NCBI GenBank assembly: GCA_965652415.1
Contig: CBFGVH010000004.1
Coordinates: 3,071-67,070 of the forward strand
Direction of reading: 5' to 3'
Origin: an uncultured Gammaproteobacteria bacterium
GTDB lineage: Bacteria > Pseudomonadota > Gammaproteobacteria > Arenicellales > CAJQKF01
Length of the DNA: 64,000 bases
In this document: one piece after another, positions 6,681 through 64,000 of the stretch
Layout: every line of letters starts with the position of its first letter
Position numbering within the stretch: the stretch's first letter is position 1
Notes under the pieces: generated by a model
The model's input: the letters and a program-made list of their open reading frames with translations, nothing else
Database searches by the model: none
Told to the model about the DNA's origin: nothing
Position numbers and translations under genes: made by a program

Positions 6681-7720
6681 TGTGCAAGCCTCATGTCTGT
6701 GTTTGCGGGGCGGTTGGGAAACCAGGGCACGCGACCCTCGAGGATCCCGGAAGCGTCCACGATCTCGGCAACCGACTCTTCCTGCCGGTAGGCCATGATG
6801 TGGATGCCGGCCACTCCCTTGATTTCACGAATTCGCTGAATCAGTTCGATGCAGATCTTCTTGCCTTCGAGCCTGGGCTTTTCGGCCTTGAGCAGCCGCT
6901 CGATCACGTCGTCGGGAATATGCACGCCCGGCACGTGGTCGCGGATCCACGACGCGGCCCGCCCCGACGCCAGCGGCCCGACCCCGACCAGGATGAACAC
7001 CTTCTCGTCCAGGCCCCGGTCGCACACCTGTTCCATGAACCGCTCAAGGCGCGGCACGTCGTAGCAGTACTGGGTCTGCACGAACTGCGCCCCCGCGGCC
7101 ACTTTCTTCGCCAGCCGGTCGACGCGAAAGTCGAGCGGCTCGGCGAACGGGTTCTCGGCGGCGCCGAGAAAAATCTTCGGCGAGAAGTCGAGTTTGCGCC
7201 CGCTCAGGAACTCGGACTCGTCGCGCATTCGCCGCGCCGTGGTCAGCAGCGACATGCAGTCGAAGTCGAACACCGGCTTGGCGCCCGGCTGGTCGCCGGC
7301 CTGCACGCCGTCCCCGGACAGGCACAGGATGTTCGCCACGCCCATCGCCGCCGCTCCGAGAATGTCTCCCTGGATGGCGATGCGGTTCCGGTCGCGGCAG
7401 GAGATCTGCATGATCGTCGAGTAGCCGACGCGCGTCAGAAGCGCGCACACGCCGACGCTCGACATGTGGCAGTTGGCGCCCGATCCGTCGGTCGCGTTGA
7501 TCGCATCGACGTAGCCGTCGAATATCCTCGCCCTCAGGTACACCTCTTCCGGGTCCGCGGAGTCCGGCGGGGCCAGTTCCGCCGTTACCGCGAACTTGCC
7601 CCCGCGCAGCACGCGCTCGAACCGCCCCGGCGACACGTGCCCGGGAAGTATCGGCAGAGAATAACCCGGAACCGGCTCGTCTTCAAAGTACATGGCCGAA
7701 CTCCCCGCCCGACGGGGCAT
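6677..7720 (-). CDS. metF: Methylenetetrahydrofolate reductase (MetF, MetV-associated type)
   Basis: 347 aa. 'FAVTAELAPP', 'DAINATDGSGA', 'QISCRDRNRIAIQGDILGAA..GV.NILCLSGD'. ATG at 7720; an alternative ATG lies at 7693. Confidence 0.85.
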   Translation of the reverse strand: MPRRAGSSAMYFEDEPVPGYSLPILPGHVSPGRFERVLRGGKFAVTAELAPPDSADPEEVYLRARIFDGYVDAINATDGSGANCHMSSVGVCALLTRVGYSTIMQISCRDRNRIAIQGDILGAAAMGVANILCLSGDGVQAGDQPGAKPVFDFDCMSLLTTARRMRDESEFLSGRKLDFSPKIFLGAAENPFAEPLDFRVDRLAKKVAAGAQFVQTQYCYDVPRLERFMEQVCDRGLDEKVFILVGVGPLASGRAASWIRDHVPGVHIPDDVIERLLKAEKPRLEGKKICIELIQRIREIKGVAGIHIMAYRQEESVAEIVDASGILEGRVPWFPNRPANTDMRLAQ

Positions 7721-7721
7721 T

Positions 7722-8189
7722 TCAGGATTGCTGGTAGAACTGCTCGTCGCGAAGACGCCGTACCTCGCGCAACCACGCAGAGGAGCCTTTCAGGGAACGG
7801 TCGACCACCACCTGAACGTCGAGAATGCGCTGTCCGTTGCGCATCCTGAGGCTCCCTTCGTAGGCCTCGACCCACACGCATCGCATATCGGGCTTCACCT
7901 CGCAGTTCCCGTTGGCGCGCACGCCGCCGCACGGCCCGTTGCGAATCTCCTTGGGGCAGTTCATGGGGCAGGACATGCCGGTGGAGCTGAGCACGCAGCG
8001 GCCGCACATCCGGCAGTCGAACAGGAATCCCTTGACCCGCTTCTCGATCGCGGTCACCGGCTTTTCGACACGGTCGTAGCCGATTTTCAACCACAACGGG
8101 TGCAGCGCGGCGAAGAACCGCTCGAAGTGCCGATAGAACCACTCCATCTGTCGTGCGTGGCGCACCGACCATCGTCTCACCGCGTACAT
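7722..8189 (-). CDS. Methylenetetrahydrofolate reductase C-terminal-domain protein (MetV-like, Cys-rich)
   Basis: 155 aa. Cysteine cluster 'CRMCGRCVLSSTGMSCPMNCPKEIRNGPCGG'. Sits immediately upstream of metF. Confidence 0.75.
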   Translation of the reverse strand: MYAVRRWSVRHARQMEWFYRHFERFFAALHPLWLKIGYDRVEKPVTAIEKRVKGFLFDCRMCGRCVLSSTGMSCPMNCPKEIRNGPCGGVRANGNCEVKPDMRCVWVEAYEGSLRMRNGQRILDVQVVVDRSLKGSSAWLREVRRLRDEQFYQQS

Positions 8190-8201
8190 GGCAGCTCGCC
8201 G

Positions 8202-8510
8202 TCAGTCGTCAGCGGCGGGACGGCGGCCCTTGCCGCGAATCATCGCCGCCAGCATGTCGTCGTCGATGGATGCCTGAAGTACCTCGGCGCGCGCCCGGGC
8301 CGCGGCGTCGATGTCGCCCGAGACTTCCTCGGTCTCGCGCCGCCATTCCTCGAGGTAGGCGTCGGTGCCGCCCTTGCCGGCGCGCATGGCGGCGCGGTCG
8401 ATGGCTTCCTGGAAACGTTCGGGCAGCTGCACCTTGGCCGTGCGCCTGCCCTGCTTGACGATGACCTGGGCCGGGATGTCGCGCCAGTACACGGTGATGA
8501 GTTTCGCCAT
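8202..8510 (-). CDS. Small uncharacterised protein ('virulence factor' family by recollection), corrinoid-cluster associated
   Basis: The track ORF extends to 8630; the ATG at 8510 gives 'MAKLITVYWRDIPAQVIVKQGRRTAKVQLPERFQEAIDRAAM...'. It is 102 aa and sits 7 nt from the DUF1638 stop. The family name comes from memory only. Confidence 0.5.
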   Translation of the reverse strand: MAKLITVYWRDIPAQVIVKQGRRTAKVQLPERFQEAIDRAAMRAGKGGTDAYLEEWRRETEEVSGDIDAAARARAEVLQASIDDDMLAAMIRGKGRRPAADD

Positions 8511-8517
8511 GGCGGCG

Positions 8518-9117
8518 TCAGACGAGGGCTTCGAGAGCGGACTCGAACGCATCGAGCCCGGTCGGCACGCGCTCGTACTCGAGGCCGAGGAAGGCCGCGG
8601 CATCGGCGGCCTCGCGATCCAGTGCCGCATCGTCGCTCTGCGCCAGGTACACCAGTCGGCGGTAGTTGCCGAAAAGCATGTCCTTCAGTTCGGGGTGACG
8701 GTCGATGCCCATGCCCTTGACGATCAGGCGGGTGAAATTGCGTGCGAGGTAGTCGGTCAGGTAGAAGGTGGCCGCGTCACGCTCGGCCAGTTCGGCGAAT
8801 CGGCCGGCGCCGGCGAAGAACTCGTAACAGTGGGCGCCCGGGATGCGATCGACGCCGTGCCGGCGCGCCACCTCATCCAGCAAGCCCCCGCTGCCGCAGT
8901 CGGCGTAGCCGATCACGATGCGCTCGAAGCGGCCCTCGTTCTCCATGATCTTGCGCTCCACCGCCGGCGCGATGCGCTCGGGCCGGTTGTGCAGTTCGGC
9001 GGGCAGGCATTGGATCTCGACCGCCTGCCAATCGTTGAGGCGCCGGATGCGTACCAACTCGTTCGCCACGGCGCCGCAGGCGATCACGAGCACCTTGCCC
9101 GGGGCGTTGGAGGACAT
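8518..9117 (-). CDS. DUF1638 domain-containing protein
   Basis: ATG at 9117 ('MSSNAPGKVLVIACGAVANEL...'). 'IGYADCGSGGLLD', 'GAHCYEFF', 'FYLTDYLARNF'. The start is 4 nt from the corrinoid-protein stop. Confidence 0.7.
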   Translation of the reverse strand: MSSNAPGKVLVIACGAVANELVRIRRLNDWQAVEIQCLPAELHNRPERIAPAVERKIMENEGRFERIVIGYADCGSGGLLDEVARRHGVDRIPGAHCYEFFAGAGRFAELAERDAATFYLTDYLARNFTRLIVKGMGIDRHPELKDMLFGNYRRLVYLAQSDDAALDREAADAAAFLGLEYERVPTGLDAFESALEALV

Positions 9118-9121
9118 CGTC

Positions 9122-9835
<714 letters not shown>

Positions 9836-10041
9836 GATTCACTCACTCGATACTGCTGGGGTCCGCTGCCGCCGGGGTACGCCTGGAAGGCGTCGGGCGG
9901 CCGTTCGGCTGGTCGCCTTCGGGCACCCATCGTACCCGATTCGCCGGCGATTTATGGGCCACGGAGACACCGGCTGCTGGCGCCGGCGCGACACCAGTTT
10001 ATAGTAGAACGACAAACGCTAAAACCTCGCCCCGCACGCGG

Positions 10042-11712
10042 TCAAAACAGACCGGTGGTGTTGCCGGATTCGTCGAGACGAATGCGGGTAGCGGCAGGCA
10101 CCCGCGGCAGTCCGGGCATGGTCATGATGTCACCGCAGATCACGACCAGGAAACCGGCGCCGGCGGCCAGGCGCACCTCGCGCACTGGCACCACGTGATT
10201 CGACGGCGCACCGCGCAGGGCCGGGTCGGTGGAGAAGCTGTACTGGGTCTTGGCGATGCATACCGGGAGATGGCCGAAGCCGTCGTCCTCGAAGGCCTTG
10301 AACTGAGCCCGCACACGGCTTTCGGCGGTGATGTCGTCGGCCCCGTACAGGCGCCGGGCGATGGTGCGCACCTTCTCCCAGGGAGACAGCGAGTCCTCGT
10401 AAAGAGGCATGAACTGGCTGCGGCCGGCCTCGGCCAGCGCCGCCACCTCGCGCGCCAGCTGCTCGGTGCCGGCGCCGCCTTCGGAGAAGTGGGTACAGGG
10501 CACCGCGGTCACGCCGTGGCCGGCGCAGAACTCCTTCACCAGTTCCAGTTCCGCGTCGGTATCGCTGGCGAAGCGGTTGATGGCCACCACCAGCGGCACG
10601 CCGAACTGGTGAACGTTCTCGATGTGTCGGCGCAGGTTGGCGAAACCTTCACGGACGGCATCGAGGTTTTCGGCGCCGAGTGCGTCCCGGGCCACGCCGC
10701 CGTGGTACTTCAGGGCGCGAATCGTCGCCACCAGCACGGCGGCGTCGGGCGCCAGGCCCGACTTGCGGCACTTGATATCGAAGAACTTCTCGGCCCCGAG
10801 GTCGGCGCCGAAGCCCGCCTCGGTGACCACGAAGTCGGCCAGCCCCAGGGCGGTGGTGGTGGCGATCACCGAGTTGCAGCCGTGTGCGATATTTGCAAAC
10901 GGCCCGCCGTGGATGATCGCCGGGTTGCCTTCCAGTGTCTGCACCAGGTTGGGACTGAAAGCATCCTTGAGCAGCACGGTCATCGGCCCGGCCGCTTCGA
11001 GTTCCGCACAGCGAATCGGCCGGCGTTCGCGGGTGTAGCCGACGATGATGTCGCCCAGGCGCCGCTCGAGGTCCTCGAGACTCGATGCCAGGCAGAAGAT
11101 GGCCATCACCTCGGAGGCCACGGTGATGTCGAACCCCGACTCGCGCGGGAAGCCGTTGGCGATGCCGCCCAGGGCCACGTTGACCTGGCGCAGGGCGCGG
11201 TCGTTCATGTCCAGCACCCGTCGCCAGGCCACCCGGCGCGTGTCGAATCCGAGCTCGTTGCCCCAGTAGATGTGGTTGTCGATCATCGCCGCGAGCAGGT
11301 TGTGGGCCGCGGTGATGGCGTGAAAATCGCCGGTGAAATGAAGGTTGATGTCCTCCATGGGGATCACCTGAGCGTATCCGCCGCCGGCCGCGCCGCCCTT
11401 CATGCCGAAGCAGGGCCCGAGGCTCGGCTCGCGCAGGCACACCACCGCGTTCCTGCCGATGCGGTTGAGGCCGTCGGTGAGGCCAACCGAGGTCGTGGTC
11501 TTGCCCTCGCCTGCCGGCGTGGGAGAAATCGCCGTGACCAGCACCAGGCGCCCGCGCGGCCGTGCCGCGGCCTCGTTCACCATCGCCGCGCCGATCTTCG
11601 CCTTGTCGTGGCCGAAGGGACGCAGGTGCTCCCACGCGATGCCCAGGCGCTCGCCGATCTCGCCGATCGGACGGGGGGTGACGCTGCGGGCGATTTCTAT
11701 ATCGGATTTCAT
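10042..11712 (-). CDS. fhs: Formate--tetrahydrofolate ligase
   Basis: ATG at 11712 ('[11 protein letters not shown]'). FTHFS signature '[16 protein letters not shown]' and '[11 protein letters not shown]'. Confidence 0.95.
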
Positions 11713-50391: not shown

Positions 50392-52788
50392 ATGAGTGAC
50401 AACCTGGTCTGGTTCACCGACCTGGGCATGGGCGACGTGCCCCGCGTGGGGGGCAAGAACGCCTCACTGGGCGAGATGATCAGCGCGCTGGCCGACAGCG
50501 GCATCGAGGTGCCCGGCGGCTTCGCCACCACGGCCGACGCCTACAGGCGGCACCTGGCCCGCGACGGCCTCGACAAGCGCATCGCCGGGGTGCTCGACGC
50601 CCTCGACGTCGACGACGTCTCGGCCCTCACCGCCGCCGGCCGGCAGATCAGGCAGTGGATCGAGGACGCGCCCCTGCCGGAGGACCTCGAGAACGAGATC
50701 CGCGAGGCCTATCGCACCCTCGGCGACGGGCGCGACGCGGCCGTCGCGGTGCGCTCCTCGGCCACCGCCGAGGACCTTCCCGAGGCATCGTTCGCCGGTC
50801 AGCAGGAGACCTTTCTCAACGTTTGCGGCGCCGACGCGGTGCTGGCCGCGACGAGGCGCGTGTTCGCCTCGCTGTTCAACGACCGGGCCATCTCCTACCG
50901 CGTCCACCAGGGCTTCACCCACGCCGACGTGGCGCTGTCCGCGGGCATCCAGTACATGGTGCGCAGCGACATCGGCTCGAGCGGGGTCATGTTCACTCTC
51001 GACACCGAGTCCGGCTTCGACCGCGCCGTGTTCATCACCTCGTCGTTCGGCCTCGGCGAGTGCGTGGTGCAGGGTGCGGTCAATCCCGACGAGTTCTACG
51101 TCTACAAGCCGGCGCTGGCCGCCGGCCGGCCGGCCATCCTCAAGCGCTCGCTCGGCTCCAAGCTGATCAAGATGGTCTACGCCGACGGCGGCGAGCACCC
51201 GGTGACCGTGGTGGACACCCCCGCCGACGAACGGGCCCGGTTCTCCCTCGGCGACGACGACGTCCACGAGCTGGCGCGGATGGCCGTCGCCATCGAGAAG
51301 CACTACGGCCGGCCCATGGACATCGAGTGGGGCAAGGACGGCGAGACCGGCAGGCTGTACATCCTGCAGGCCAGGCCCGAGACGGTGGTCAGCCGCGGCA
51401 ACGGCCAGGTGCTGGAGCGCTTCGCCCTGAAGGCGCGCGGCGAGGTACTGGCCGAGGGCCGCGCCATCGGCCAGCGCATCGGCTCCGGGACAGTGCGCAT
51501 CGTGCCGGACGTCGAGCACCTCGCCCGGGTCGAGGCTGGCGACGTGCTGGTCACCGACATGACCGACCCCGACTGGGAGCCGGTCATGAAACGCGCCAGC
51601 GCCATCGTCACCAACCGCGGCGGGCGCACCTGCCACGCCGCCATCATCGCCCGCGAGTTGGGCGTGCCGGCGGTGGTGGGCTGCGGCGATGCGACCTCAA
51701 GAATCACCGACGGCGCCGAGGTCACGGTCTCCTGCGCCGAGGGCGACAACGGCTACGTCTATGCCGGCCACCTCGACTTCGAGGTCAAGCGGGTGGCCCT
51801 CGACGACATGCCGGCACTGCCCTTCGAGATCATGATGAATGTCGGCAACCCCGAGAGGGCCTTCGACTTCGCCCGCCTGCCGGGCTACGGGGTCGGCCTG
51901 GCCCGGCTCGAGTTCATCATCAACAACACCATCGGCATTCACCCCAAGGCGGCGCTGCACTACGACGACATGCCCGCCGACGTTCGCCAACGCATCGATG
52001 CCGCGAGTCGAGGCTACGCCGACCCGGTGCGCTTCTACGTCGACAAGCTGGCCGAGGGCATCGCCACCCTGGGCGCGGCCTTCGACCCCAAGCCCGTCAT
52101 CATTCGCCTGTCTGACTTCAAGTCCAACGAGTACGCCAACATGATCGGCGGCGGCGAGTTCGAGCCCGACGAGGAGAACCCGATGCTGGGTTTCCGCGGC
52201 GCCTCGCGCTACATCGACGCCGGCTTTCGCGAGTGCTTCGACCTCGAGTGCCGGGCGTTGAAATTCGTGCGCGACGAGATGGGGCTGACCAACATCCGGG
52301 TGATGGTCCCGTTCGTGCGCACCCTCGACGAGGCGCGCCAGGTCACCGACCTCCTGGCCGCCAACGGCCTGGCGCGGGGCGACAACGGGCTGAAGGTCAT
52401 CATGATGTGCGAGATCCCCTCCAACGCCCTGCTCGCGGAGGAGTTCCTGGAGCACTTCGACGGCTTCTCCATCGGCTCGAACGACCTCACCCAGCTCACC
52501 CTGGGCCTGGATCGCGACTCGGGCATCATCTCGCACCTGTTCGACGAGCGCGACCCGGCTGTCAAGGCGCTGCTGGCCAGGGCCATTTCCGCCTGCAGGC
52601 AGGCCGGCAAGTACGTCGGCATCTGCGGCCAGGGCCCGTCCGACCACCCCGACCTAGCCCGCTGGCTGATGGACCAGGGCATCGACAGCGTCTCGCTCAA
52701 TCCGGACACCGTGGTGGAGACCTGGCTGTTCCTCGCCGAGGCCGCCCCGCATTCTTGCGACCAGGGGGATCACCGCGTTGACGCGTAA
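50392..52788 (+). CDS. ppsA: Phosphoenolpyruvate synthase
   Basis: ATG at 50392 ('[29 protein letters not shown]'). Phospho-His '[15 protein letters not shown]' and 'SIGSNDLTQ'. Confidence 0.95.
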
Positions 52789-52812
52789 CACAGTTACACG
52801 TAGACTGTGTTC

Positions 52813-53043
52813 ATGAAAAACATCACCCTCAGCATCGACGAGAAGATACTGGCCGCCGCCCGACGGTACGCCGCGGAACAAAACTCCTCGGTGAACGCAA
52901 TCGTGCGCGAGTACCTGGCCGACATTGCCCGGCGGGAAGATCGGGCGGCCCGGGCCCGCGAACGCCTCGGGCAGCTCGGCCGAGAGTCCAGCGCCCGGAT
53001 CGGGGCGAGGAAGTGGCAGCGCGACGAATTGCATGAGCGTTGA
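52813..53043 (+). CDS. Ribbon-helix-helix antitoxin (VapB-like)
   Basis: 'MKNITLSIDEKILAAARRYAAEQNSSVNAIVREYLADI...'. The track ORF starts at a GTG at 52807. Overlaps the PIN gene by 11 nt. Confidence 0.7.
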   Translation: MKNITLSIDEKILAAARRYAAEQNSSVNAIVREYLADIARREDRAARARERLGQLGRESSARIGARKWQRDELHER

Positions 53044-53446
53044 GTGCTTCCTGGATACCAACGTCCTGGTTTACGCGGCGGCGGGCGACGAGGAAACGGA
53101 AAAGCGCGACACTGCGCTGCGGCTGATAGAGGAAACCGATTTCGGCCTCTCCGCCCAAGTCATGCAGGAATTCTACGTAACGGTGGTGCGCAAGGCGAAG
53201 GTTCCCCTGTCCCCGGTCGCGGCGCTGGAGTGGATCGAGCAGCTTCGAGCATTTCCGTGCGCAGTAATCGACGCCAGCCTCGTCATGGTCGCCGTTGAGA
53301 ACAGCGAGCGATATCGAATCTCCTATTGGGACGGCGCCATCGTCGCCGCGGCCGAGTCCCTTCAGGCGCCGATACTGTACAGCGAAGACCTCAACCACCA
53401 GCAGGTCTATGGCTCGGTCCGAGTCATGAACCCGTTTTTTGCCTGA
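53033..53446 (+). CDS. PIN-domain ribonuclease toxin (VapC-like)
   Basis: 'MSVECFLDTNVLVYA...' with the conserved acidic positions (D in 'LDTN', E in 'VMQEF', D in 'SYWDG', D in 'SEDL'). Confidence 0.85.
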   Translation: MSVECFLDTNVLVYAAAGDEETEKRDTALRLIEETDFGLSAQVMQEFYVTVVRKAKVPLSPVAALEWIEQLRAFPCAVIDASLVMVAVENSERYRISYWDGAIVAAAESLQAPILYSEDLNHQQVYGSVRVMNPFFA

Positions 53447-53521: not shown

Positions 53522-55189
<1,668 letters not shown>

Positions 55190-55310
55190 GAAAACGCAAC
55201 GTGGTGTTGACTGCAGGTTGCCCCGGGTGCCGGGGGGAGAGTGCTGCCACGGCCCGGCCGTTACGCCGAACCAGGGGCCGAGCCCGGCGCGGTGCCGGGC
55301 GCTGCCCGGG

Positions 55311-55553
55311 TCACTGTGACGACGGGGACGCTTGCGACTCGCGCTCGAGTTCCGCGACCCGGGCCTCAAGGGCCTCGAGCTTGCGGCGGGTCCGAAGCAG
55401 CACCTGGCGCTGGACTTCCAGCTCCTCTCGCGAGACGAGATCCATATCCTCGAGCGCGGCACGCACGGCGGCGCGGACATTGCGACGCACGTCCTCGCCC
55501 ATGCGCTCGGGGAGCATGGCATTGACGGCGCCGGCCAGGTCCTTGAGTAGCAC
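55311..55553 (-). CDS. ubiK: Ubiquinone biosynthesis accessory factor UbiK (YqiC/BMFP family)
   Basis: 'DLVSREELEVQRQVLLRTRRKLEALEARVAELE' matches the UbiK coiled-coil core. The preferred start is the GTG at 55553, 9 nt after a GGAG. The track ORF extends to 55637. Confidence 0.65.
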   Translation of the reverse strand: MLLKDLAGAVNAMLPERMGEDVRRNVRAAVRAALEDMDLVSREELEVQRQVLLRTRRKLEALEARVAELERESQASPSSQ

Positions 55554-55692
55554 TTGACGGATCTCCGAAACTCCTCGGGTGCCGATTATAGCGTCATCCG
55601 CGCGCCGGCGAAGCACGTGTCGCCAGCGAATAGCCACCGGTTCGCCACCGGGAATGCAACTCTTGACCCTTGACGGGGTTTAAGGTGCCGCT

Positions 55693-55800
55693 GTCGACCG
55701 CACGGTCGACCATTGGCAAACCGGCTGCAACTCCCGCCGGTGGACGGCAACGTCCCTCCCGTGATTGAGCGTCCCCCGGAACCCCCGGGGGACTTTTTTT
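55693..55800 (+). ncRNA. Candidate structured small RNA or leader ending in an orphan terminator (5' end undefined)
   Basis: Three hairpins precede the terminator: GTCGACC-GCAC-GGTCGAC (55693..55710), CCGGC-N10-GCCGG (55721..55740) and GGACG-GCAA-CGTCC (55742..55755). No plus-strand CDS lies upstream. Confidence 0.3.
55771..55800 (+). terminator. Rho-independent terminator (plus strand)
   Basis: GTCCCCCGG-AACCC-CCGGGGGAC followed by TTTTTTT. The flanking genes ubiK and ettA are on the opposite strand. Confidence 0.8.
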
Positions 55801-55807
55801 CGGGTTG

Positions 55808-55837
55808 TTGACAGGATCGGCGGTCCTCCCGTACTTT
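55808..55837 (+). promoter_or_regulatory. Candidate sigma70 promoter of the K+ channel gene
   Basis: TTGACA (55808..55813), an 18-nt spacer, then TACTTT (55832..55837). It starts 8 nt after the terminator T-run. Confidence 0.45.
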
Positions 55838-55973
55838 TTTGCCGCACCTCCCGGCCGGTCCCCATGAATCAACGCCTCCCGACGCCGCCGAATCGCGGCA
55901 GCGGACCTTCCCCCGCCCTGGACAGCTCCAGGGCCGCTGCCGGGTCTTGCCCGCGAGCGGCGGCATCCGCCGG

Positions 55974-56714
55974 ATGGGCATCATGATGCAACGGCTCCAC
56001 CGGCTGGTCGACGAACATACCGTCGCCGGCAGGCGCTTCGCCTGGTTCATCCAGGCGCTGATCGTCGTATCGATGATCAGCTTCACCATCGAGACCCTGC
56101 CCGACCTGCCTGCCGACTGGATGCGCGCGTTCGCGTGGCTGGAGATCGTGGTCGTGTTGATCTTCACTTTCGAGTACGTACTTCGCGTGCTTTGCGCGCC
56201 GAGCAAGCCGCGCTTCATCTTCAGTTTCTTCGGACTCGTCAACCTGGCGGCCATTGCGCCCTTCTATCTCGCCACGGGCCTGGACCTTCGCTCGGTGCGG
56301 ATCCTGAGACTGCTGCGCCTTCTGCGCATCATCAAGCTGTTCCGCTACAACCGCGCCGCCCAGCGCCTGGCACGCGCCTTCGTCCAGGTGCGTCACGAAC
56401 TGGTGCTTTTCATCGTCCTGATCGTCGTCCTGCTGTACCTGTCCGCGGTCGGCATCTACTACTTCGAGAACGAAGCGCAGCCCGACAAGTTCAAGTCGGT
56501 GCCGCACAGCATGTGGTGGGCGCTGGCGACCTTGACCACCGTGGGCTACGGCGACATCTACCCGATCACCGCCGGCGGCCGCTTCTTCACCTTCATCGTC
56601 CTGATACTCGGCCTCGGCGTAATCGCGGTGCCAACAGGCCTGGTCGCCTCCGCGCTGACCAACGCCAGGGACGACGAGCCGAACGACGAGAGCCGGCCCC
56701 CGTCAGTACAGTGA
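55974..56714 (+). CDS. Voltage-gated (6-TM, Kv-type) potassium channel
   Basis: ATG at 55974. S4 with basic residues at every third position ('RSVRILRLLRLLRIIKLFR') and selectivity filter 'TLTTVGYGD'. Short C-terminus with no RCK domain. Confidence 0.85.
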   Translation: MGIMMQRLHRLVDEHTVAGRRFAWFIQALIVVSMISFTIETLPDLPADWMRAFAWLEIVVVLIFTFEYVLRVLCAPSKPRFIFSFFGLVNLAAIAPFYLATGLDLRSVRILRLLRLLRIIKLFRYNRAAQRLARAFVQVRHELVLFIVLIVVLLYLSAVGIYYFENEAQPDKFKSVPHSMWWALATLTTVGYGDIYPITAGGRFFTFIVLILGLGVIAVPTGLVASALTNARDDEPNDESRPPSVQ

Positions 56715-56808
56715 TGATGCGCTTGCGAACCGGGGCGGCGCGAAACGGCCTCAGTACAACAATCGCCCATCGTCGAACGACGGTCGCATCGGGGGGATCC
56801 CGGCGACC

Positions 56809-57612
56809 CTATTGCATCTCCATCACGCGGAGGCGGATCACTTCCCAGGCACCGAACGAGGCAAAATGCGCATAGACGGCGTCCAGCAACCGCGTCTGGC
56901 GCCACTCCTCGATGACGTCGGCGGGCAAGGCGTCGTATTTCTTCCGGTCGATCACATGGAAACCACGCAACCGGCGTGTCTCCTCGCCCGGTAGCAGCAG
57001 GCTGGCCTGCCCTTCCGAGAGAAGGTCGAGCTCGTGCAGCACCCGGCAGCACGTCCTGGTGTGCGCTTCGGAAGCGGCGTAGTTGCGGCAGAATTCAATC
57101 GCCTCTCTCAGGGTTTTCGTCGGCTCCTCGCTGTGGTACAGCGGCCGGATATCGCCCTCCGACACCATCGGCGCCTCACGGTCGATGCACACGGTCCACT
57201 GATCGGTCTCGGCGACGCGCGCGGCGAGGAACGGATAGCGCCGGACGTAGGCGGGAACATAACGCCCTTTCGCCCAGGTGCCGTCCGACTCGATGAACAG
57301 GTTCCTGCCGTCCATGCCGCCAAGCAGCGCATAGGCCATGGGGTCGGACCCGCCGGAGAAGACAATCGGGTAGTGGCGCTGGGCTTCGGCGAACTCATTG
57401 ACGAGCAGCGGCACGTGGTCGACTTCGGCGCTGAAACTCATGTCGGCAGCATCCTTCACCGACAATGCGCCATGCGCTGCCGGCGTCAGGATCTCGATCT
57501 TTTTGTAGAACATCGGAAGGACCCGGTCGGCGGGCGTCTCCCCCGGGGGATGCGTACCCGCAGCCGGCGGATTCGGCTGTTCGTTCATTACAGAATCGAG
57601 GCGTTCAACCAT
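56809..57612 (-). CDS. SapC family protein
   Basis: SapC-like core 'FYKKIEILTPAAHGALSVKD...HYPIVFSGG...ALLG...YVPAYVRRYPF'. The ATG at 57612 lies 9 nt after AGGAGGAG. The core is preceded by a roughly 33-aa Pro-rich extension. The track ORF starts at a TTG at 57621. Confidence 0.8.
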   Translation of the reverse strand: MVERLDSVMNEQPNPPAAGTHPPGETPADRVLPMFYKKIEILTPAAHGALSVKDAADMSFSAEVDHVPLLVNEFAEAQRHYPIVFSGGSDPMAYALLGGMDGRNLFIESDGTWAKGRYVPAYVRRYPFLAARVAETDQWTVCIDREAPMVSEGDIRPLYHSEEPTKTLREAIEFCRNYAASEAHTRTCCRVLHELDLLSEGQASLLLPGEETRRLRGFHVIDRKKYDALPADVIEEWRQTRLLDAVYAHFASFGAWEVIRLRVMEMQ

Positions 57613-57652
57613 GGCTGCCAACTCCTCCTGAGTCGTCGTTAGTGGTGGTTGC

Positions 57653-59722
57653 TTAGGGGTCCGGAGCCGCTGGCGACAGCATGATGCCGCGATCGCACAA
57701 GGCCTGGATCTCCGGTCGGTGGGTCGCGAGAACGACGGTCATGCCGCGTTCGCGCAATCGTTCCAATATGCGCGTACTCTGCTCGAGCGACAGATGATTG
57801 AAGGCGTCGTCGAAGAACAGGCACTCATCGCTTTTGTACAATGCCTGTGCCAAGAGCAGGCGCTGAACCTCACCCCGGCTCAGACCTTGTTCCTCGAGCC
57901 GCTCGCGGCCGTCCGACCCGACGAAGAACCCCAAACGGTCCCACAGCTCCGTCAGGCGCAGCATGCCGATGAGACGTTCGGTATCGACCCCCTGCTCGTT
58001 GGAAACGAACTCGGCCAGCGAACCGTGAATGAATTCATCGTCGGCGAATACGAAACCGGCCGGCGCCGGACCGTCCAGCGGCCGGCCGTCAAGATACACG
58101 CCGCCTTGAAGCGGAAGGCGCAAACCCGCGAGCAGCTCGAGCAGCGTCGTCTTGCCGGCGCCGCTCGCTCCCGCAAGGTTGACGACCTCGCCTTTGTCGA
58201 TGCGCAGGTCAAGGTTGCGAAACAAGTCCGCATCGACACCGTTGTAGCCGAAACTGACACTGCGCGCCTCGATCCGCGAGCACCAGCTGGCAGGAGACGG
58301 CGAATCTTCCGCAGGCCGGTCCCCGGCATCGGGGCTTGCCTGCTCCGCTGCGTCCAGGACTTCGGCGACACGCCGCGCGACCGGGCGCAGTGCGCAGTAG
58401 CGCCGTGTCGTCTCCGAGATTTCCTCGAGCTGCGTGGACAGCATCACGGCCAGCATGCTGGCCAGCATGTAGCCGCCATAGGTCAATTGACCATCGATCA
58501 GAAGGTACCCGCCGGCGAAGGCCGACAGCGGCAGGGAGAGCGCCGCCATACTCTGGCGAGCCGCGGTATAGCCGATGAGGCGCCGTCCCCGATCGGCCTC
58601 GGCGGCCTGCCGTCGGCCGAGCGGGGGCAGGCAGGTGGCAAGCAGATGGTTCTGCAGACCGGCGGCGTAAAAGCGCAGGTAACCGCTGGCCCTCTGGGTT
58701 TGCAGCGCCTGGTATCGGGCGTTCTCGTCGTGTGCACGGAGCTGTCGTTCCCGGTTTCGCGCACTGACGACAAACAACCAGGCGAGCAATACGAGCTGGG
58801 GCAACAGATGGACGATGGCGATCAGCGGCGCCATGATGCCGAGGACGGCGATCGCCAAGACCGCGATCAGCACATGCCGCCCCATGTTGTGTGTGGCCTG
58901 CAGGTAAAAGCGCAGGCACTGATCGAGATCGCGCAGCCGGCCGAACAACTCACCCGCGAAGTGAGATTCAAAGAAGCTCGTTGGCCGAATGTAGAAGCGC
59001 TCGAGGAACGAGCGCTTCATGCGGATGGCCAGGTCCGACGACAGGCCTTCGAAGCGCATGCCCTGACAGTGGCGCAGCATGAAACGGGCGGCGAGCACCG
59101 GAATACCGGCCAGTGCCAGCACGTAGCCCCATTGGGTCATCTGGAATTCGACGACATAGTCGAAGAATGTTCGCGCAATGCCGCCGAACAGCAGCTCGAC
59201 GAGGAACACGAGTGCGCTGGCCGCGAGGCCGACGGCGAACACACCCTTCAGTTGCATTGAGCCGACCGGCGCCAGTGAATGCAGGAACCGCCACGGCGAG
59301 CGGTCGCGGTCCCCTGACGCCCTGCCGTTGACCTGAACGTCCAGGCACACACCAGTGAAATGACGGTCGAATTCCGCAAGCTTGAGCTTTCGGCGTCCCG
59401 ACGCCGGATCATTGATCCAGGCGTGCTTTCCCCGGATTTCCTCCAGGACCACGAAGTGCCGCAGGTCCCAGTGCAGGATGATCGGTCGGCCCGCTTTCCT
59501 GAGACTTTCCATTCCCTTCTTGACGACCAGGCAGCGATGGCCAAGCGACTGGGCGCCACGCTGTATCTGGGCGACGGTCGCACCGTCGCGCCCGACCGCG
59601 CAGAGCCGTCGCAGATCGAGGGTGGAATGCCTTTGGCCATGGTGCTCCAGAACGATACCAAGGCAGACCGCCCCGCAGTCGACGGGATTGCCCTGAAGCC
59701 GAACGGGTGTCCTGGTGATCAG
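57653..59722 (-). CDS. C39-peptidase-domain ABC transporter (bacteriocin/RiPP-type maturation exporter)
   Basis: C39 triad: Cys in 'NPVDCGAVCL', His in 'LRHFVVL', Asp in 'WINDPA'. Six-TM domain. NBD with 'GASGAGKTT', 'LSRGE', 'LFFDDA' and 'ATHR'. The 5' end is uncertain: the track ORF begins at a GTG at 59902 (184-nt overlap), and 59722 is a CTG in a CTGA junction. Confidence 0.85.
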   Translation of the reverse strand: MITRTPVRLQGNPVDCGAVCLGIVLEHHGQRHSTLDLRRLCAVGRDGATVAQIQRGAQSLGHRCLVVKKGMESLRKAGRPIILHWDLRHFVVLEEIRGKHAWINDPASGRRKLKLAEFDRHFTGVCLDVQVNGRASGDRDRSPWRFLHSLAPVGSMQLKGVFAVGLAASALVFLVELLFGGIARTFFDYVVEFQMTQWGYVLALAGIPVLAARFMLRHCQGMRFEGLSSDLAIRMKRSFLERFYIRPTSFFESHFAGELFGRLRDLDQCLRFYLQATHNMGRHVLIAVLAIAVLGIMAPLIAIVHLLPQLVLLAWLFVVSARNRERQLRAHDENARYQALQTQRASGYLRFYAAGLQNHLLATCLPPLGRRQAAEADRGRRLIGYTAARQSMAALSLPLSAFAGGYLLIDGQLTYGGYMLASMLAVMLSTQLEEISETTRRYCALRPVARRVAEVLDAAEQASPDAGDRPAEDSPSPASWCSRIEARSVSFGYNGVDADLFRNLDLRIDKGEVVNLAGASGAGKTTLLELLAGLRLPLQGGVYLDGRPLDGPAPAGFVFADDEFIHGSLAEFVSNEQGVDTERLIGMLRLTELWDRLGFFVGSDGRERLEEQGLSRGEVQRLLLAQALYKSDECLFFDDAFNHLSLEQSTRILERLRERGMTVVLATHRPEIQALCDRGIMLSPAAPDP

Positions 59723-61737
59723 CGGCGGGTCTCCAGCTCGATGACCGTTTCCGCGAATGCGTGCATGTGCGAGCGGTGCGATACGAAATAGATCTGCTCG
59801 AACAAGGGCCGGATACTGGTGAATATGACTTCTTCCATGTCCATCGGCAGACCCGACATGGCCTCGTCCAGGACCAGGATTGCACTTCTCTTGATGACGC
59901 ACTGCGCAAGCGCCATCCTTTGCCGCTCACCTGTCGAGAAGTCCCGTCGGGCGTCGCCGATCGGCGTGTTCAGTCCAAGCGGGAGTGCTCTAACGCGGTC
60001 GACCAATCCGACCAGTTCCAGCGACTCCCACAGACTCCTGTCGCCAGACGTGGTCGCACCGAATAGCAATAGATTGTCGCGCACCGTCCCCGGCAACAAC
60101 TGCACGTTCTGATCCGCGTAGGCGAAGATGCGCCGGCGCTCGTTCATGGAAAGACGCGTCGGATCCACTCCGAGGACCTCGATCGCACCCGAGTCCGGCG
60201 CCTGTAGCCCGAGCAGACAGTTCAGAAATGTCGTCTTGCCGGCTCCCGACTCGCCCGCGATTCGCACTACGCGTGGCCCCTCGATGCGAAGCGTCAGGCT
60301 CTCGGCGTCCTTGAAGCGGCAGCCGTGAGGCAGGCGCAGGCGGTGACACTCGACGCTGGCATTCGCCTGGGTGACAGTGGGGGTGTTCAACGCGTGAACC
60401 TGGGCCGCTTCCTCCAGCAGATCCTTAGCCTCGAGCAGATCGATCCGGATAGCGCCGACTTTCCCGATGGCCGTCGCCACACGCGGAATCATCCGGTAGG
60501 TCTGCGTGACGAGATAAAGCATGATGAAGGCAAGCCCCACGGTGAGCGCATTGCCGGTCTGCGCGGCGAAGGCGACAAGCACCGTGAGCGCGAAGATCGC
60601 CAGCAACTGGGTGACATCCATCAATGTCGCCTCGGCCTCGCGGGCACGGGATTCGCCCGCCGCGACGCTGCGGCGGGCGTCGGCGATCTCCCTCTGGCAC
60701 TGCTGCCAGTGGGCGATCGCCCTGCCGGCGGCATCGTAGAAATTCAGGCGCGTGATGTTGCCCATGATCCGGTAAAGGTAGCCGTCGCTCTCGGTCTCCT
60801 CGAACACCAGCCTTCGCTGACGGCGGCCTTGACGCCACTGAAAAAATACCTGGGGCACGGTGCCGACCACGGCGATAACGAGCGTGGCGAAAAACAGGAA
60901 TGTCGGCAGGCGCAGGTACAGCAGGATCAGAATCGGCGCAATCGCAAGCGAGGCGACGACTGCGATTACAGCATCCGATGTCGCCTTTCCGACCCGAGAC
61001 ACGACGGCGCACTGCTCATGCGCCCGGTGGATACCCCTCACAGCGATGTACTGCGGTCGCATGGACCATAAAAGCGAGAGTTTCAGAATCTCCGCCCGCT
61101 CCTCGATCAGAGAGTCCAGGTGGAACTGCACCCGTTGCGCCAGGAAATGGCCGAGACCGATCGTTGCCGCCGCCCCGGCCATGAGCCAGGCAATGGCCCA
61201 GAAGGCACCGAGATTCTGGGTCGGGACGACATAGGCCAGGATGCTGAAGTTGGCGATGAACAGGAGCGATGCGGTCAGAGCGATCAGCGCCTGGCACAAT
61301 AGGGCCTCGCGCATCAGCCCCCGCGCCGGTCGGAGCACGAAATCGGCGACCCTGCGGATCGTGATCGGACGGTCCAGGACAAACGGCTCGAACAGCACCC
61401 GAAGATCGGTCAGGCCAAACTGCTCCGCGTCCGGAAGATCGAAACGCTCACCGCTTTCGAGCGCCAACCCCCGAACCGTATCGCCTCTGAGCAGTGCCGG
61501 TACGTACTCGAGCAGGACCGGGCCGTATTCCCCGTATTGTCCGATCCAGAGTGGATAGCCGCGCAGACGGTCGGTTCCCGCCGTGACCGGCACCGCAATC
61601 ACTCCCAAGTGCCGCTCGAGATAGACGATCCAGTCGGAGAGGTCACCACACGCCGGCCGCGGCAGGTCGCGCAAGCGTTCCGGCGCACTGAGGGCATTCC
61701 CGAGGAACTGACGGAGGACGTCAGGCGCCACCGTCAC
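59719..61737 (-). CDS. ABC transporter permease/ATP-binding protein, non-peptidase partner
   Basis: About 150-aa N-domain without a Cys/His/Asp triad, a 6-TM domain, and a canonical NBD ('GESGAGKTT', Q-loop 'YADQNV', 'STGERQR', 'ILVLDEA', 'VSHR'). The GTG at 61737 overlaps the upstream stop (GTGA). The track ORF starts at a TTG at 61755. Confidence 0.85.
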   Translation of the reverse strand: MTVAPDVLRQFLGNALSAPERLRDLPRPACGDLSDWIVYLERHLGVIAVPVTAGTDRLRGYPLWIGQYGEYGPVLLEYVPALLRGDTVRGLALESGERFDLPDAEQFGLTDLRVLFEPFVLDRPITIRRVADFVLRPARGLMREALLCQALIALTASLLFIANFSILAYVVPTQNLGAFWAIAWLMAGAAATIGLGHFLAQRVQFHLDSLIEERAEILKLSLLWSMRPQYIAVRGIHRAHEQCAVVSRVGKATSDAVIAVVASLAIAPILILLYLRLPTFLFFATLVIAVVGTVPQVFFQWRQGRRQRRLVFEETESDGYLYRIMGNITRLNFYDAAGRAIAHWQQCQREIADARRSVAAGESRAREAEATLMDVTQLLAIFALTVLVAFAAQTGNALTVGLAFIMLYLVTQTYRMIPRVATAIGKVGAIRIDLLEAKDLLEEAAQVHALNTPTVTQANASVECHRLRLPHGCRFKDAESLTLRIEGPRVVRIAGESGAGKTTFLNCLLGLQAPDSGAIEVLGVDPTRLSMNERRRIFAYADQNVQLLPGTVRDNLLLFGATTSGDRSLWESLELVGLVDRVRALPLGLNTPIGDARRDFSTGERQRMALAQCVIKRSAILVLDEAMSGLPMDMEEVIFTSIRPLFEQIYFVSHRSHMHAFAETVIELETRR

Positions 61738-62639
61738 CCGCCGTTCTTCACCCAAGAGGGTACGGAATACTCGCCATACCAGCGGCGCAGAGCCGGCCAG
61801 AACACCCAGTCAGCAAGGGGACAGTGCAGTTCCGCCCCGCGTCTCCACGGACGTAGCCGCACCGTTCCCGGCTCCGGGTAGTCCAGAAGGTGATGCCCCG
61901 CCCTGTGACGCCGTGCCAGAAATCGCGCGATGGAGATCCCCTCCACGTCGACGGCCACATCGGGTCGGGCATAGAAATGCAAACGACTCGACGTCTTTCC
62001 GGGCTGGTACCGGTCGGGGAACAGACTCGGCGGCATGTCGCCAAAGTAAATGAGGACGGTCCGATCGCTCATCTCGCGACCGAGTGTTGCCAACCAGGCA
62101 CCCTCCAGCCTCAGGCACACCGTTTCGACCTGCAGAACACGCTCGACGAGTATTTGGCCCGTTGCCGCGCGTGGATCCAGTGGATCTCGCAGGTGCAGGA
62201 GTATCGCCTTGCGGAATCCATGTCCAGCGACCAGAAGCTGGATCGTCGCATAGAGCACCGAGAAAACGCAGCAATGGTGTACGCTCTCAAGGATGAGCGG
62301 ACGGTCGGTTGGCGGCGATATCTCACCGAGTTCGAAGCGAAGGCTCTTCTTCACAGACAGGAAATAGTCCCGTGCCTGTCCGAGACTCATGGTCGGCATG
62401 ACGAGCGGTTCGAACCAGTAGTCGGCCAGGTTGCGCACGCCCCGCTCGTCTTCCTCCGGGGCGATTGCCGAAAGTCCCTCGATGCGCGACAACACCAGCC
62501 GGGACAGCAATTCGTCCTCGCGCCAACGATGCAGTAGTCGAGTGCGAGTCGCACGAGGGCTTTCAGACGTGCTGTAAGCGCGCATGATCGTAAGATCGAG
62601 CCGATCCTGGATCTCGGATTCGTCGGCGTTCGGGATCAT
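61734..62639 (-). CDS. Hypothetical protein (301 aa), embedded in the export operon
   Basis: ATG at 62639, 25 nt after the HlyD stop; the stop overlaps the next gene's start. No signal peptide, no TM helix, and no motif I can assign. There is only weak collinearity with LpxL-type acyltransferases (see findings). Confidence 0.6.
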   Translation of the reverse strand: MIPNADESEIQDRLDLTIMRAYSTSESPRATRTRLLHRWREDELLSRLVLSRIEGLSAIAPEEDERGVRNLADYWFEPLVMPTMSLGQARDYFLSVKKSLRFELGEISPPTDRPLILESVHHCCVFSVLYATIQLLVAGHGFRKAILLHLRDPLDPRAATGQILVERVLQVETVCLRLEGAWLATLGREMSDRTVLIYFGDMPPSLFPDRYQPGKTSSRLHFYARPDVAVDVEGISIARFLARRHRAGHHLLDYPEPGTVRLRPWRRGAELHCPLADWVFWPALRRWYGEYSVPSWVKNGG

Positions 62640-62664
62640 GAAGGGATTTCCGTACGACAGTCAG

Positions 62665-64000
62665 CTAGCCCTGGTTGAAAAAATCCGCGTAGAACGGCAA
62701 CAATACGGCTATTGGCGAGGTGACTTCCACCCATATGCGCGTCGTGACCATCGTACCAACGGAAAGCGGCCGGCTCAGGGTATCGCCATCGAGTCGCAGT
62801 GCACCGTCTGGATCCCGCTCGAAGCCGAGATTCGCGACGATGCCGGCATGGGAGCCTGTCAGCATCTGTGCGAGTTCGGCGCTGCCGACTAGCGCCTGGG
62901 CCTCGATCGAAGTGGCGATGTAGTCGCTGACATACGTCACTCGGGCCTCGATCTGGGAACCGATCAGCGACTTCTCGAAACCGGGTTTGACGAGGGCCCG
63001 ATCACCGACCTGGACGCGCTTGGCATCCTGGGGTTGCAGCAGCGCCACGGCCACCAGCCCGCTACCGCGCCATTCGTCCCCGATGGGAATCAGGTCCGCA
63101 AAAACGGGGACGTTCGCGTCGTCGAACAACTCGGTTTGCGAAAGCTCGAGACGCTCCAGTACACCGAGGCCGTTGCCGGCTGCCGTGATCACCGCGCGTT
63201 CATCAGCAATGCGCAGATCGAACACCACACCCGGCGCCAGATTCCGGATGGCTTCGTGGAGTTCGGACTCGAAGTCGGTGTCATCCTCGCCATATTCGAT
63301 CGTCATCGCCCTGTCGACCACAGCCAGCGTTATCTGTCCGCGCCGGGCGCGCGGCGAGATCACCATGAGCATGCCCTGGTGCTGGGGCACCAGGTTGACC
63401 AGGGCCACGGGCTCACCCTGGCCGACCAATTGGCCGGGCGCCTTCTTCATGGCGATCAGCTCGCCTTCATATGGCGAGACGATGTTCTCGCCCATCCAAC
63501 GCTGACGTTCGGCATTCAGCAATGCGCTGCGGCTGGCAAGTGCGCGCAGTTCCAGTTCCATTCGATCGATTTCCCACCTGCCTTTTGCGCTCTCCAGAGG
63601 GTTCAGGATCCTCTGTTCCTCGGCATGGCTGGCGTCGATCTTCTGGTTGATGTCGCTCAGCGCGTGCTGCATCCGCTCACGTTCGCTCCTGGAGTGAGAA
63701 AGTGCGGCGGCGCTCTCGAAAGAGACTGCCATGCTCCGCAGCCGGGCACGCTTGGCGAGCACGCTGTGGAGTCTGTCGTCCAGCGCCTTGATTTGTTCGT
63801 CATGGTTCCGGAGGCCGTCCTGCTTCTGTGCCTCCAGCAGCGATGTCTCGGCCAGGTACCGGCGGCGGGCATCTTCGTAGGCGGCCCTAGCGGGCGGATT
63901 GGAGACCCGCAGCAGGATGTCCCCGGCGCGGATTCGGGTTCTGGCAGCATCCGGTCGACCCGTCACCGTTCCCTGCCCCAGGGAGGTGATCTCGCGCACG
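62665..64000 (-). CDS. HlyD-family membrane-fusion/secretion protein (5'-partial, continues beyond the window)
   Basis: More than 444 aa with no N-terminal TM anchor in the window. Long coiled coil ('YLAETSLLEAQKQDGLRNHDEQIKALDDRL...', 'RWEIDRMELELRALASRSALLNAERQRW') and beta-barrel segments ('IVSPYEGELIAMK', 'GTMVTTRIWV'). Confidence 0.8.
   Translation of the reverse strand, partial: VREITSLGQGTVTGRPDAARTRIRAGDILLRVSNPPARAAYEDARRRYLAETSLLEAQKQDGLRNHDEQIKALDDRLHSVLAKRARLRSMAVSFESAAALSHSRSERERMQHALSDINQKIDASHAEEQRILNPLESAKGRWEIDRMELELRALASRSALLNAERQRWMGENIVSPYEGELIAMKKAPGQLVGQGEPVALVNLVPQHQGMLMVISPRARRGQITLAVVDRAMTIEYGEDDTDFESELHEAIRNLAPGVVFDLRIADERAVITAAGNGLGVLERLELSQTELFDDANVPVFADLIPIGDEWRGSGLVAVALLQPQDAKRVQVGDRALVKPGFEKSLIGSQIEARVTYVSDYIATSIEAQALVGSAELAQMLTGSHAGIVANLGFERDPDGALRLDGDTLSRPLSVGTMVTTRIWVEVTSPIAVLLPFYADFFNQG

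Follow-up and report, generated by a model that had tools for sequence, protein, structure and literature searches.

What does a 301-amino-acid (aa) protein of no recognizable family do between the genes of a bacterial exporter? The question is raised by a stretch of 64,000 nucleotides (nt) from an uncultured gammaproteobacterium (contig CBFGVH010000004.1 of assembly GCA_965652415.1), referred to here as the window, in which the gene of this protein (the orphan) lies between the gene of an HlyD-like periplasmic adaptor and the genes of two ABC transporters, ABC2 without a peptidase domain and ABC1 with a C39 peptidase domain (Table 1). A preceding analysis, made by eye from the letters of the window alone (the sequence-only reading), regarded the orphan as a possible divergent relative of the LpxL-type lipid A acyltransferases that is wired into a maturation exporter. 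Here we describe the family, the predicted fold, and the genomic company of the orphan. On our best reading of these data, the orphan serves specifically for tailoring within a so far undescribed radical S-adenosylmethionine (SAM) maturation system for large cysteine-rich proteins.

A rare family and its predicted fold

The 301-aa proteins form a rare, previously unnamed family. Sequence searches with the orphan and with its family in Pfam, NCBIfam, and the Protein Data Bank (PDB) produced no relevant match; two PDB hits, 7vi8 (E 0.045) and 2a7w (E 0.15), are short and weak and were taken as noise. A word-indexed search of 5.8 billion clusters retrieved only four clusters, and an exhaustive profile search of 1.84 billion representatives retrieved 46 (at 50% identity), nearly all of them 285-307 aa long. 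The family alignment consists of 37 sequences with 16-59% identity to the window protein. Only four of its columns are invariant (E77, H121, D201, and W278), and R13, D15, D73, Y92, H122, S127, R157, W182, W281, and P282 are nearly so. Neither the window protein nor its 37 relatives match Pfam or NCBIfam: no Pfam family is matched consistently by the 37 members, and PF03279 and PF01553 are not found even at E <= 1. The protein is thus an orphan by sequence, as initially described, and the profile check of its suspected kinship with Lip_A_acyltrans and LPLAT (the lysophospholipid acyltransferase group) came out negative. Public records name the family members "hypothetical protein" throughout, and our literature searches found no description of the family, nor of an LPLAT or acyltransferase partner in TIGR04463, ranthipeptide, or SPASM systems.

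The window is GC-rich, with many overlapping spurious open reading frames (ORFs), and a chance frame or a pseudogene had to be considered. This explanation is refuted by the existence of 46 homologous clusters of the same length, by a gene order preserved across 27 loci in genomes of Alpha-, Gamma-, and Deltaproteobacteria type, by identical copies of the sequence on 14 contigs, and by an AlphaFold model with a predicted local distance difference test score (pLDDT) of 94.5; given the clusters, the four invariant columns, and the model, we take the ORF to be a real gene. The ORF listing confirms its location between the HlyD-like and ABC genes and places it on the minus strand, which had been left unstated. 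The HlyD-like gene lies upstream on the same strand, with a gap of 25 nt to the ATG of the orphan. At the other end, the TGA of the orphan (61736-61734) overlaps a GTG (61737-61735) in frame with the ABC2 ORF, the junction being read as tcac on the plus strand (61734-61737) and GTGA on the minus strand. The overlap noticed in the sequence-only reading is therefore real and supports translational coupling of the orphan with ABC2; it recurs, likewise over 4 nt, in the gene calls of the related loci L001, L021, L022, and L038.

The AlphaFold2 model built on the 37-sequence alignment (predicted TM-score, pTM, 0.91) begins with an N-terminal helical bundle (residues ~1-100), after which comes an alpha/beta domain; the last residues of its core strands are 119, 149, 177, and 199. 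An earlier model from four sequences was poor (pLDDT 67) and served only as a replicate. When the PDB was searched with Foldseek, PatA of Mycobacterium smegmatis occupied ranks 1-8 for the 37-sequence model (E 8e-8 to 6e-7, prob 1.0; TMq 0.38-0.41, TMt 0.44-0.48) and ranks 1-9 for the four-sequence model (E 1.5e-6, prob 1.0). By this ranking the model has a PatA-type alpha/beta fold with a central six-stranded sheet. Since PatA belongs to the LpxL/HtrB/MsbB family, the guess of an LpxL-like protein holds at the level of the fold, where two models agree, and fails at the level of profile methods, which detect no LPLAT or Lip_A_acyltrans signal. The similarity is a distant one, because the TM-scores stay below 0.5 and LpxM falls outside the top 50 matches.

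We consider it very unlikely that the resemblance to PatA is superficial, a generic Rossmann-like alpha/beta sandwich joined to a helical bundle in some unrelated role. Although the TM-scores are below 0.5, the profile alignment with the LpxL family is not significant (see below), and NG domains of signal recognition particle (SRP) GTPases form a second class of matches (E >= 2e-4, TM 0.21-0.25), PatA exceeds the latter by more than three orders of magnitude in E and twofold in TM-score with two independent models. Moreover, a second LPLAT family, GPAT (1iuq, 1k30), is among the Foldseek matches (E 2-3e-3), no P-loop motif is seen in the sequence as read, and the invariant histidine and aspartate appear to coincide with the LPLAT catalytic blocks. 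An SRP-type GTPase identity was itself considered and rejected on the E-values and TM-scores given above and on the lack of a GxxxxGK[ST] motif on reading the sequence.

The positions of these two residues deserve a closer look. Four blocks collinear with LpxL had been proposed by eye, and the peptides quoted for them are indeed found at residues 114-126 (PLILESVHHCCVF), 194-203 (TVLIYFGDMP), and 278-287 (WVFWPALRRW). An unsupervised hhalign alignment of the 37-sequence family reproduces three of the four blocks. In it, the invariant H121, which closely follows strand 115-119, falls on LpxL H132 in the register of the block-1 histidine (H126 of PatA); the invariant D201, which closely follows strand 194-199, falls on the invariant D200 of the LpxL "PD" motif; and the strand-helix-strand block 217-253 falls on the corresponding block of LpxL. 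Alignment of the LpxL-family profile to PatA, with the residue numbering verified by W130, F160, and R164 as named in PMC8519569, in turn places H132 on PatA H126 and D200 on PatA E200. In PatA, H126 is the general base and E200 its charge-relay partner, and both H126A and E200A are inactive (PMC4792965). Its loops start at residues 124, 148, 173, and ~200 (PMC4792965), to be compared with the strand ends of our model. Two of the four invariant residues of the family, H121 and D201, thus appear to fall in the register of the PatA pair H126/E200, as judged from alignment register and secondary structure rather than from superposition. Bona fide LpxL homologues all carry PF03279; since the alignment with the LpxL family is not significant, membership in PF03279 cannot be claimed from sequence, and the likeness to these enzymes is a fold-level similarity.

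The canonical HX4D motif is absent from the orphan, which reads H121-H122-x3-F126-S127 and has no acidic residue at position +5 from either histidine; S127 is nearly invariant. The sequence-only reading had seen this absence correctly and had noted it as a reservation. The objection loses its weight, because the acid used by PatA is E200 of block 3 and not the aspartate of HX4D: the D131A mutant in the latter retains 37% activity, and the acid partnering the histidine comes from block 3 in HtrB, MsbB, and PatA (PMC4792965). As to the absence of a signal peptide or transmembrane segment, it is borne out by the polar N-terminus (MIPNADESEIQDRLD...) and by a highest 19-residue Kyte-Doolittle mean of only 1.65, reached at residues 120-138, which form a buried core helix in the model. 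The N-terminus likewise has no transmembrane or amphipathic anchor of the LpxL/PatA type.

The radical SAM partner and the putative cysteine-rich precursors

The genomic context of the family was compared on contigs of the closest relatives, with 14 loci from named genomes and 15 from metagenomes, annotated by phmmer against reference proteins. This gave 27 informative distinct loci, 24 of which have enough upstream DNA to judge the presence of a radical SAM gene. A gene of a TIGR04463-like radical SAM/SPASM protein lies within two genes upstream of the orphan in all 24. The exporter adjoins the orphan in only eight of the 27 loci, in the order radical SAM, HlyD, orphan, ABC2, C39-ABC1, with a CPBP protease gene coming next in most cases. 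In the other 19, the radical SAM gene adjoins the orphan, which is usually followed by a gene of a SnoaL-like protein of 120-127 aa, and in several of these loci (e.g., L002, L010, and L013) 4-nt overlaps are seen on both sides of the orphan gene. Therefore the conserved partner is the radical SAM maturase and not the exporter. The proposed association with C39-ABC neighbors is seen in eight loci and missing from 19, and the wiring into an exporter is not a fundamental property of the family. The same 19 loci led us to reject an exporter subunit or an immunity protein as the identity of the orphan.

The partner radical SAM protein is ~550 aa long. Its best model is TIGR04463, with 444-450 bits against a cut-off of 525 (449.9 bits in L038, 444-448 in L001 and L002), and by these scores it is a sister group of the TIGR04463 family. 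The SnoaL_2/NTF2-like protein of the loci without an exporter (L002:3302-3682, L010:10897-11277, and others) overlaps the orphan by 4 nt in L002 and L010; it could serve the system as an additional tailoring enzyme or by binding. Two Bradyrhizobium loci appear to be decaying. L019 (B. retamae) has a 74-aa remnant of the orphan (9998-10222) beside a SnoaL-like gene and no radical SAM gene, and in L018 (Bradyrhizobium sp. RDT10, 8131-9841) the radical SAM gene and the orphan are split into several ORFs by frameshifts or sequencing errors.

In all loci but one, a large protein is encoded upstream of the radical SAM gene; the shortest has 373 aa (L007) and the longest over 2,600 aa (L001). Its C-terminal part consists of cysteine-rich repeats of the form C-x-x-D/N (e.g., ACGADxx, ACAANAS, and the 17-mer AACGQDATVGALVNQA), whose period and sequence vary greatly between the proteins, and its end hardly varies: ...S/F-x-C-x-(V/I)-N-(V/I/L)-x-P-x-(L/M/V)-P-S-C stop (e.g., L010:7716, L016:3510, L007:6664, and L024:6110). 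Only in L017 (Methylobacterium litchii) is the cysteine-rich protein encoded upstream without a PxLPSC tail. We consider these proteins as the putative precursors of the system, that is, as protein-sized substrates of the kind known from RiPPs (peptides that are made by ribosomes and modified after translation).

In the loci with an exporter, the precursors begin with a domain of ~170 aa. Its last residues, GMP(A/S/V)GG, form a double-glycine site that suits the C39 peptidase. The same domain, here called p156, is encoded by a separate gene (~165 aa) between the cysteine-rich gene and the radical SAM gene in loci without an exporter (L012:7765-8265 and L002:175-645), and is fused as the N-terminal leader ending in GMPxGG in the C39-exporter loci (L006:542-3364, L007:5543-6664, and L024:4107-6110); this looks like a split versus fused arrangement of the leader. 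NCBIfam has no model for the orphan, p156, or the PxLPSC tail, and Pfam has none for the orphan or p156. The precursors of non-exporter loci (L010, L016, L014, and L009) start with M-x-(K/Q/E)-(V/I/R)-(I/V)-(D/N), resembling the start of p156, M-x-x-I-D. A stretch of the L010 precursor looks LysM-like by eye.

No ORF ending in PxLPSC is found within the 64-kb window, the precursor of the window organism being encoded beyond position 64000. Among the 14 contigs with the exact orphan sequence, L038 (17,339 bp) coincides with window positions 64000..53716 (10,285 bp at 99.98% identity) and adds 7,054 bp beyond the window end, which corresponds to its position 7055. The gene order on L038 is CPBP protease, precursor, radical SAM (550 aa), HlyD (514 aa), orphan, ABC2 (672 aa), C39-ABC1, SapC. 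The 813-aa precursor, the putative substrate, comprises a leader 35% identical to a stand-alone p156 of Bradyrhizobium (E 1e-28), the motif ...HGMPVGG, PPC-like repeats (PF04151), a cysteine-rich region at ~595-813, and the tail VCGVNVLPFVPSC.

Proposed role and its alternatives

We give about an even chance to the hypothesis that the orphan is a soluble tailoring acyltransferase of the PatA/LpxL fold, modifying the precursor in the cytoplasm. What the data show is the gene with its family, how its predicted fold resembles known ones, which residues are conserved, and what genes surround it; acyl transfer, its donor, and its acceptor are inferred. In the window organism, the 813-aa precursor would be made first, carrying the ~170-aa leader with its ...HGMPVGG end, the PPC-like repeats, the cysteine-rich region, and the ...VCGVNVLPFVPSC terminus. 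The TIGR04463-like radical SAM/SPASM enzyme would then cross-link the cysteine-rich repeats, probably by thioethers, by analogy with its relatives. The invariant His121, held by the invariant Asp201, would act as the general base in the manner of the His126-Glu200 pair of PatA, and an acyl group from housekeeping acyl-CoA or acyl-acyl carrier protein (ACP) would be transferred in the cytoplasm to a serine, cysteine, or lysine of the precursor, the invariant C-terminal PSC tail being a candidate acceptor. Finally, judging from the families of its components, the C39-ABC1/ABC2/HlyD exporter would cut off the leader after the double glycine and export the product; in the exporter-type loci acylation would thus precede leader cleavage and export.

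Several observations weigh against this hypothesis. The clusters contain no acyl-carrier, acyl-CoA ligase, or lipid gene, and the orphan is without the membrane anchor that LpxL and PatA have at their N-terminus. At the level of sequence, all 37 members leave PF03279 and PF01553 unmatched at E <= 1, and the hhalign comparison of the 37-sequence family with LpxL, LpxM, LpxP, and A. baumannii LpxM gave a probability of 0.08%, rising to 0.19% when PatA and 10 LpxL homologues were added, neither being significant; the LpxL profile used is shallow, as the search to deepen it yielded mostly close enterobacterial LpxL and little added diversity, and a deeper HHpred comparison could differ. At the level of structure, the TM-scores against PatA are modest (0.38-0.48), the root-mean-square deviation is 6.5-10 A, and LpxM of A. 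baumannii (5KN7), although present in the library, is not among the top 50 fold matches. The known members of the PatA/LpxL fold acylate lipids or glycolipids and not proteins.

Some of these observations would also suit a non-catalytic partner, that is, an LPLAT-derived scaffold or chaperone that binds the p156-type leader or the C-terminal tail and either presents the long cysteine-rich substrate to the radical SAM enzyme or keeps it export-competent. The lack of acyl-donor genes and of a sequence-level LPLAT signal is consistent with such a role, as are the constant co-occurrence of the orphan with the radical SAM gene and the p156 domain, its translational coupling to the radical SAM gene in several non-exporter loci, and the N-terminal helical bundle of 100 residues, which has no assigned role. 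However, an invariant histidine and an invariant aspartate, apparently at the block-1 and block-3 positions of PatA/LpxL and preserved down to 16% identity, form an enzyme-like pattern that is rare in pure binders, and on balance we find the scaffold unlikely.

The same fold and dyad would also fit a reaction other than acyl transfer from a donor. The His-Asp pair could activate water or a nucleophile of the substrate, making the orphan a thioesterase or esterase, or a transacylase that closes an ester, thioester, or lactone within the precursor, e.g., at its C-terminal Ser-Cys. Chemistry independent of an outside acyl donor would be consistent with the missing donor genes, and LpxM-type enzymes are reported (Dovala et al. 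2016) to have an acyl-protein thioesterase side activity. Nothing in the data separates hydrolysis from transfer; the PatA/LpxL family provides no precedent with peptide substrates, and we regard such a hydrolase or transacylase as distinctly unlikely.

Returning to the acyltransferase hypothesis, a more specific version of it, which we think unlikely, can be formulated. The LPLAT-fold protein would S-, O-, or N-lipidate a giant radical SAM-cross-linked protein before its type-I-like export, for example, at the ...P-S-C tail, and the Rce1-like CPBP protease would then process or sort the lipidated C-terminus. If true, bacteria would have a counterpart of the eukaryotic pathway in which C-terminal cysteines are lipidated and Rce1 then acts on the protein, and RiPP-like proteins would be lipidated by a new route that has nothing to do with HlyC or GNAT enzymes. 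The CPBP protein itself has a weak similarity to myxosortase and to the MrtS-type sorting proteases. In the window organism, its gene stands upstream of the precursor gene instead of after ABC1. About 740 bp upstream of the CPBP gene there is a radical SAM gene of the PA0069 family (L040:357-1421; 473 bits, above the cut-off), which probably has no connection with the cluster.

Should the orphan prove to be an active acyltransferase, the acceptors of the LpxL/PatA fold would include proteins made by ribosomes besides lipids and glycolipids, and a new tailoring step would be added to RiPP-like biosynthesis, where the known lipidation enzymes are of the GNAT type or prenyltransferases. As the system is found in culturable strains of Bradyrhizobium, Methylobacterium, and Desulfogranum (native hosts such as B. 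valentinum LmjM3, M. aquaticum DSM 16371, and D. mediterraneum DSM 13871), the acylation hypothesis is directly testable. Whatever the chemistry, a coherent unnamed system surrounds the 301-aa protein, its parts being protein-sized precursors (the smallest of 373 aa, the largest of over 2,600 aa), a domain-sized leader that also occurs as a stand-alone protein, cysteine-rich repeats, an invariant PxLPSC end, a sister of TIGR04463, and the PatA-like protein.

The exporter, neighboring genes, and known systems

The exporter of the window is related to the NHLP cassette and is not its equivalog: the best-scoring models of HlyD, ABC1, and ABC2 are TIGR03794, TIGR03796, and TIGR03797, respectively, all far below their equivalog cut-offs (75.7 bits against 156 for HlyD; Table 1). 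The HlyD gene is cut by the window end and lacks ~70 N-terminal residues, its alignment to the L001 protein starting at residue 71. The L038 gene call for ABC2 begins at the overlap with the orphan. The start of ABC1 is ambiguous (59690-59902). The longest ORF, from a GTG at 59902, overlaps ABC2 by 183 nt; TIGR03796 and the L001 protein are homologous to it only from residue 64 onward, near 59713; the junction of the ABC2 stop with ABC1 reads CTGA, without a canonical start codon; and the L038 gene call (619 aa) would truncate the C39 domain.

Downstream of ABC1, the SapC-family gene is probably co-transcribed with it. We count it as only a putative member of the system, because a CPBP protease stands at this position in L001, L007, L021, L022, and L024. 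We place the downstream border of the cluster at SapC, since the genes between 50398 and 56711 look like ordinary housekeeping and membrane genes.

Table 1. Positions of the orphan gene, of its conserved histidine and aspartate codons, and of surrounding genes in the window and on contig L038
Feature	Position	Strand	Basis or remark
301-aa protein (orphan)	61734..62639	minus	ATG start; unnamed family; predicted PatA/LpxL-like alpha/beta acyltransferase fold
Codons of H121 (CAC, 62279-62277) and H122 (CAT, 62276-62274)	62274..62279	minus	sequence
Codon of D201 (GAC), Y(M/F)GDMP motif	62037..62039	minus	sequence
HlyD-like periplasmic adaptor, NHLP-related	62665..64000	minus	TIGR03794 best NCBIfam match, below cut-off
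ABC2, ABC permease/ATPase without peptidase domain, 672 aa	59719..61737	minus	PF00005; TIGR03797 148 bits, cut-off 709
ABC1, C39-peptidase ABC transporter	57653..59902 (longest ORF)	minus	PF03412 Peptidase_C39, 1.2e-29; TIGR03796 299 bits, cut-off 853
SapC-family gene	56809..57612	minus	PF07277, 1.1e-57; 40 nt downstream of ABC1; AGGAGG ribosome-binding site
Ion-transport-family channel	55839-56711	plus	flanking gene; TVGYGD motif as in K+ channels
BMFP/UbiK-family protein	55314-55637	minus	flanking gene
ABC-F/EttA-like ATPase	53525-55210	minus	flanking gene
Likely toxin-antitoxin pair: DUF6364 protein (78 aa), then PIN-domain protein	52807-53446	plus	
PEP synthase-like	50398-52785	plus	flanking gene
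CPBP/Rce1-like protease, 274 aa	L038:1811-2635		PF02517
813-aa precursor, putative substrate	L038:2670-5111		off-window

Various parts of this system have counterparts among known ones. An operon that combines genes of an ABC/HlyD exporter, of a secreted protein of large size and repetitive sequence, and of a putative acyltransferase that is small and cytoplasmic is reminiscent of the RTX toxins and their activating acyltransferases (TAATs) of the HlyC type, and modification of the exported substrate in the way of HlyC had been suggested for the orphan. HlyC has a GNAT-like fold and acylates internal lysines using acyl-ACP. In contrast, the fold of the 301-aa protein is unrelated, and the protein occurs in 19 loci without an exporter and always with a radical SAM enzyme.

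The NHLP/Nif11 cassette (Haft et al. 2010, PMC2887384) shares with the window the combination of a peptidase-bearing ABC transporter, a peptidase-less one, and an HlyD-like adaptor, as well as a leader that goes back to a family of stand-alone proteins and has a double glycine at its end. The differences, beyond scores far below the equivalog cut-offs, are the extra gene between HlyD and ABC2, the leader, which is a new ~170-aa domain (p156) instead of NHLP or Nif11, and the "peptide", which reaches 813 aa here and more than 2,600 aa in L001.

Another relationship links the partner enzyme to the radical SAM/SPASM proteins of the TIGR04463/PapB type, to which it is closest, with its SPASM domain and its cysteine-rich C-x-x-D/N substrates; PapB-like enzymes make Cys-Asp/Glu thioethers (PMC9413430). 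The partner nevertheless scores below the cut-off of 525, and its substrates are protein-sized. We know of no LPLAT-fold partner described for the TIGR04463/PapB families.

With LpxL, LpxM, and LpxP (HtrB/MsbB, PF03279), the orphan shares the collinear order of blocks; the best hhalign alignment pairs H121 with H132 and D201 with D200 and also aligns the later strand-helix-strand block. On the other side stand an alignment probability of 0.1-0.2%, the position of LpxM 5KN7 outside the top 50, and the lack of an N-terminal transmembrane helix and of a lipid A context. The best structural match remains PatA, the phosphatidylinositol-mannoside palmitoyltransferase of M. smegmatis and M. tuberculosis (5F2T, 5F34, and 5OCE), also of ~300 aa; in both, the alpha/beta core appears to have the catalytic-position histidine after the first core strand and its acidic partner after the fourth, in block 3 and not in HX4D. 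PatA is a PF03279 protein, is associated with the membrane via N-terminal amphipathic helices, and acylates a glycolipid, whereas the orphan, a polar and soluble protein, shows HX4S in place of HX4D, finds no match in Pfam, and is encoded in a cluster for the maturation of peptides or proteins.

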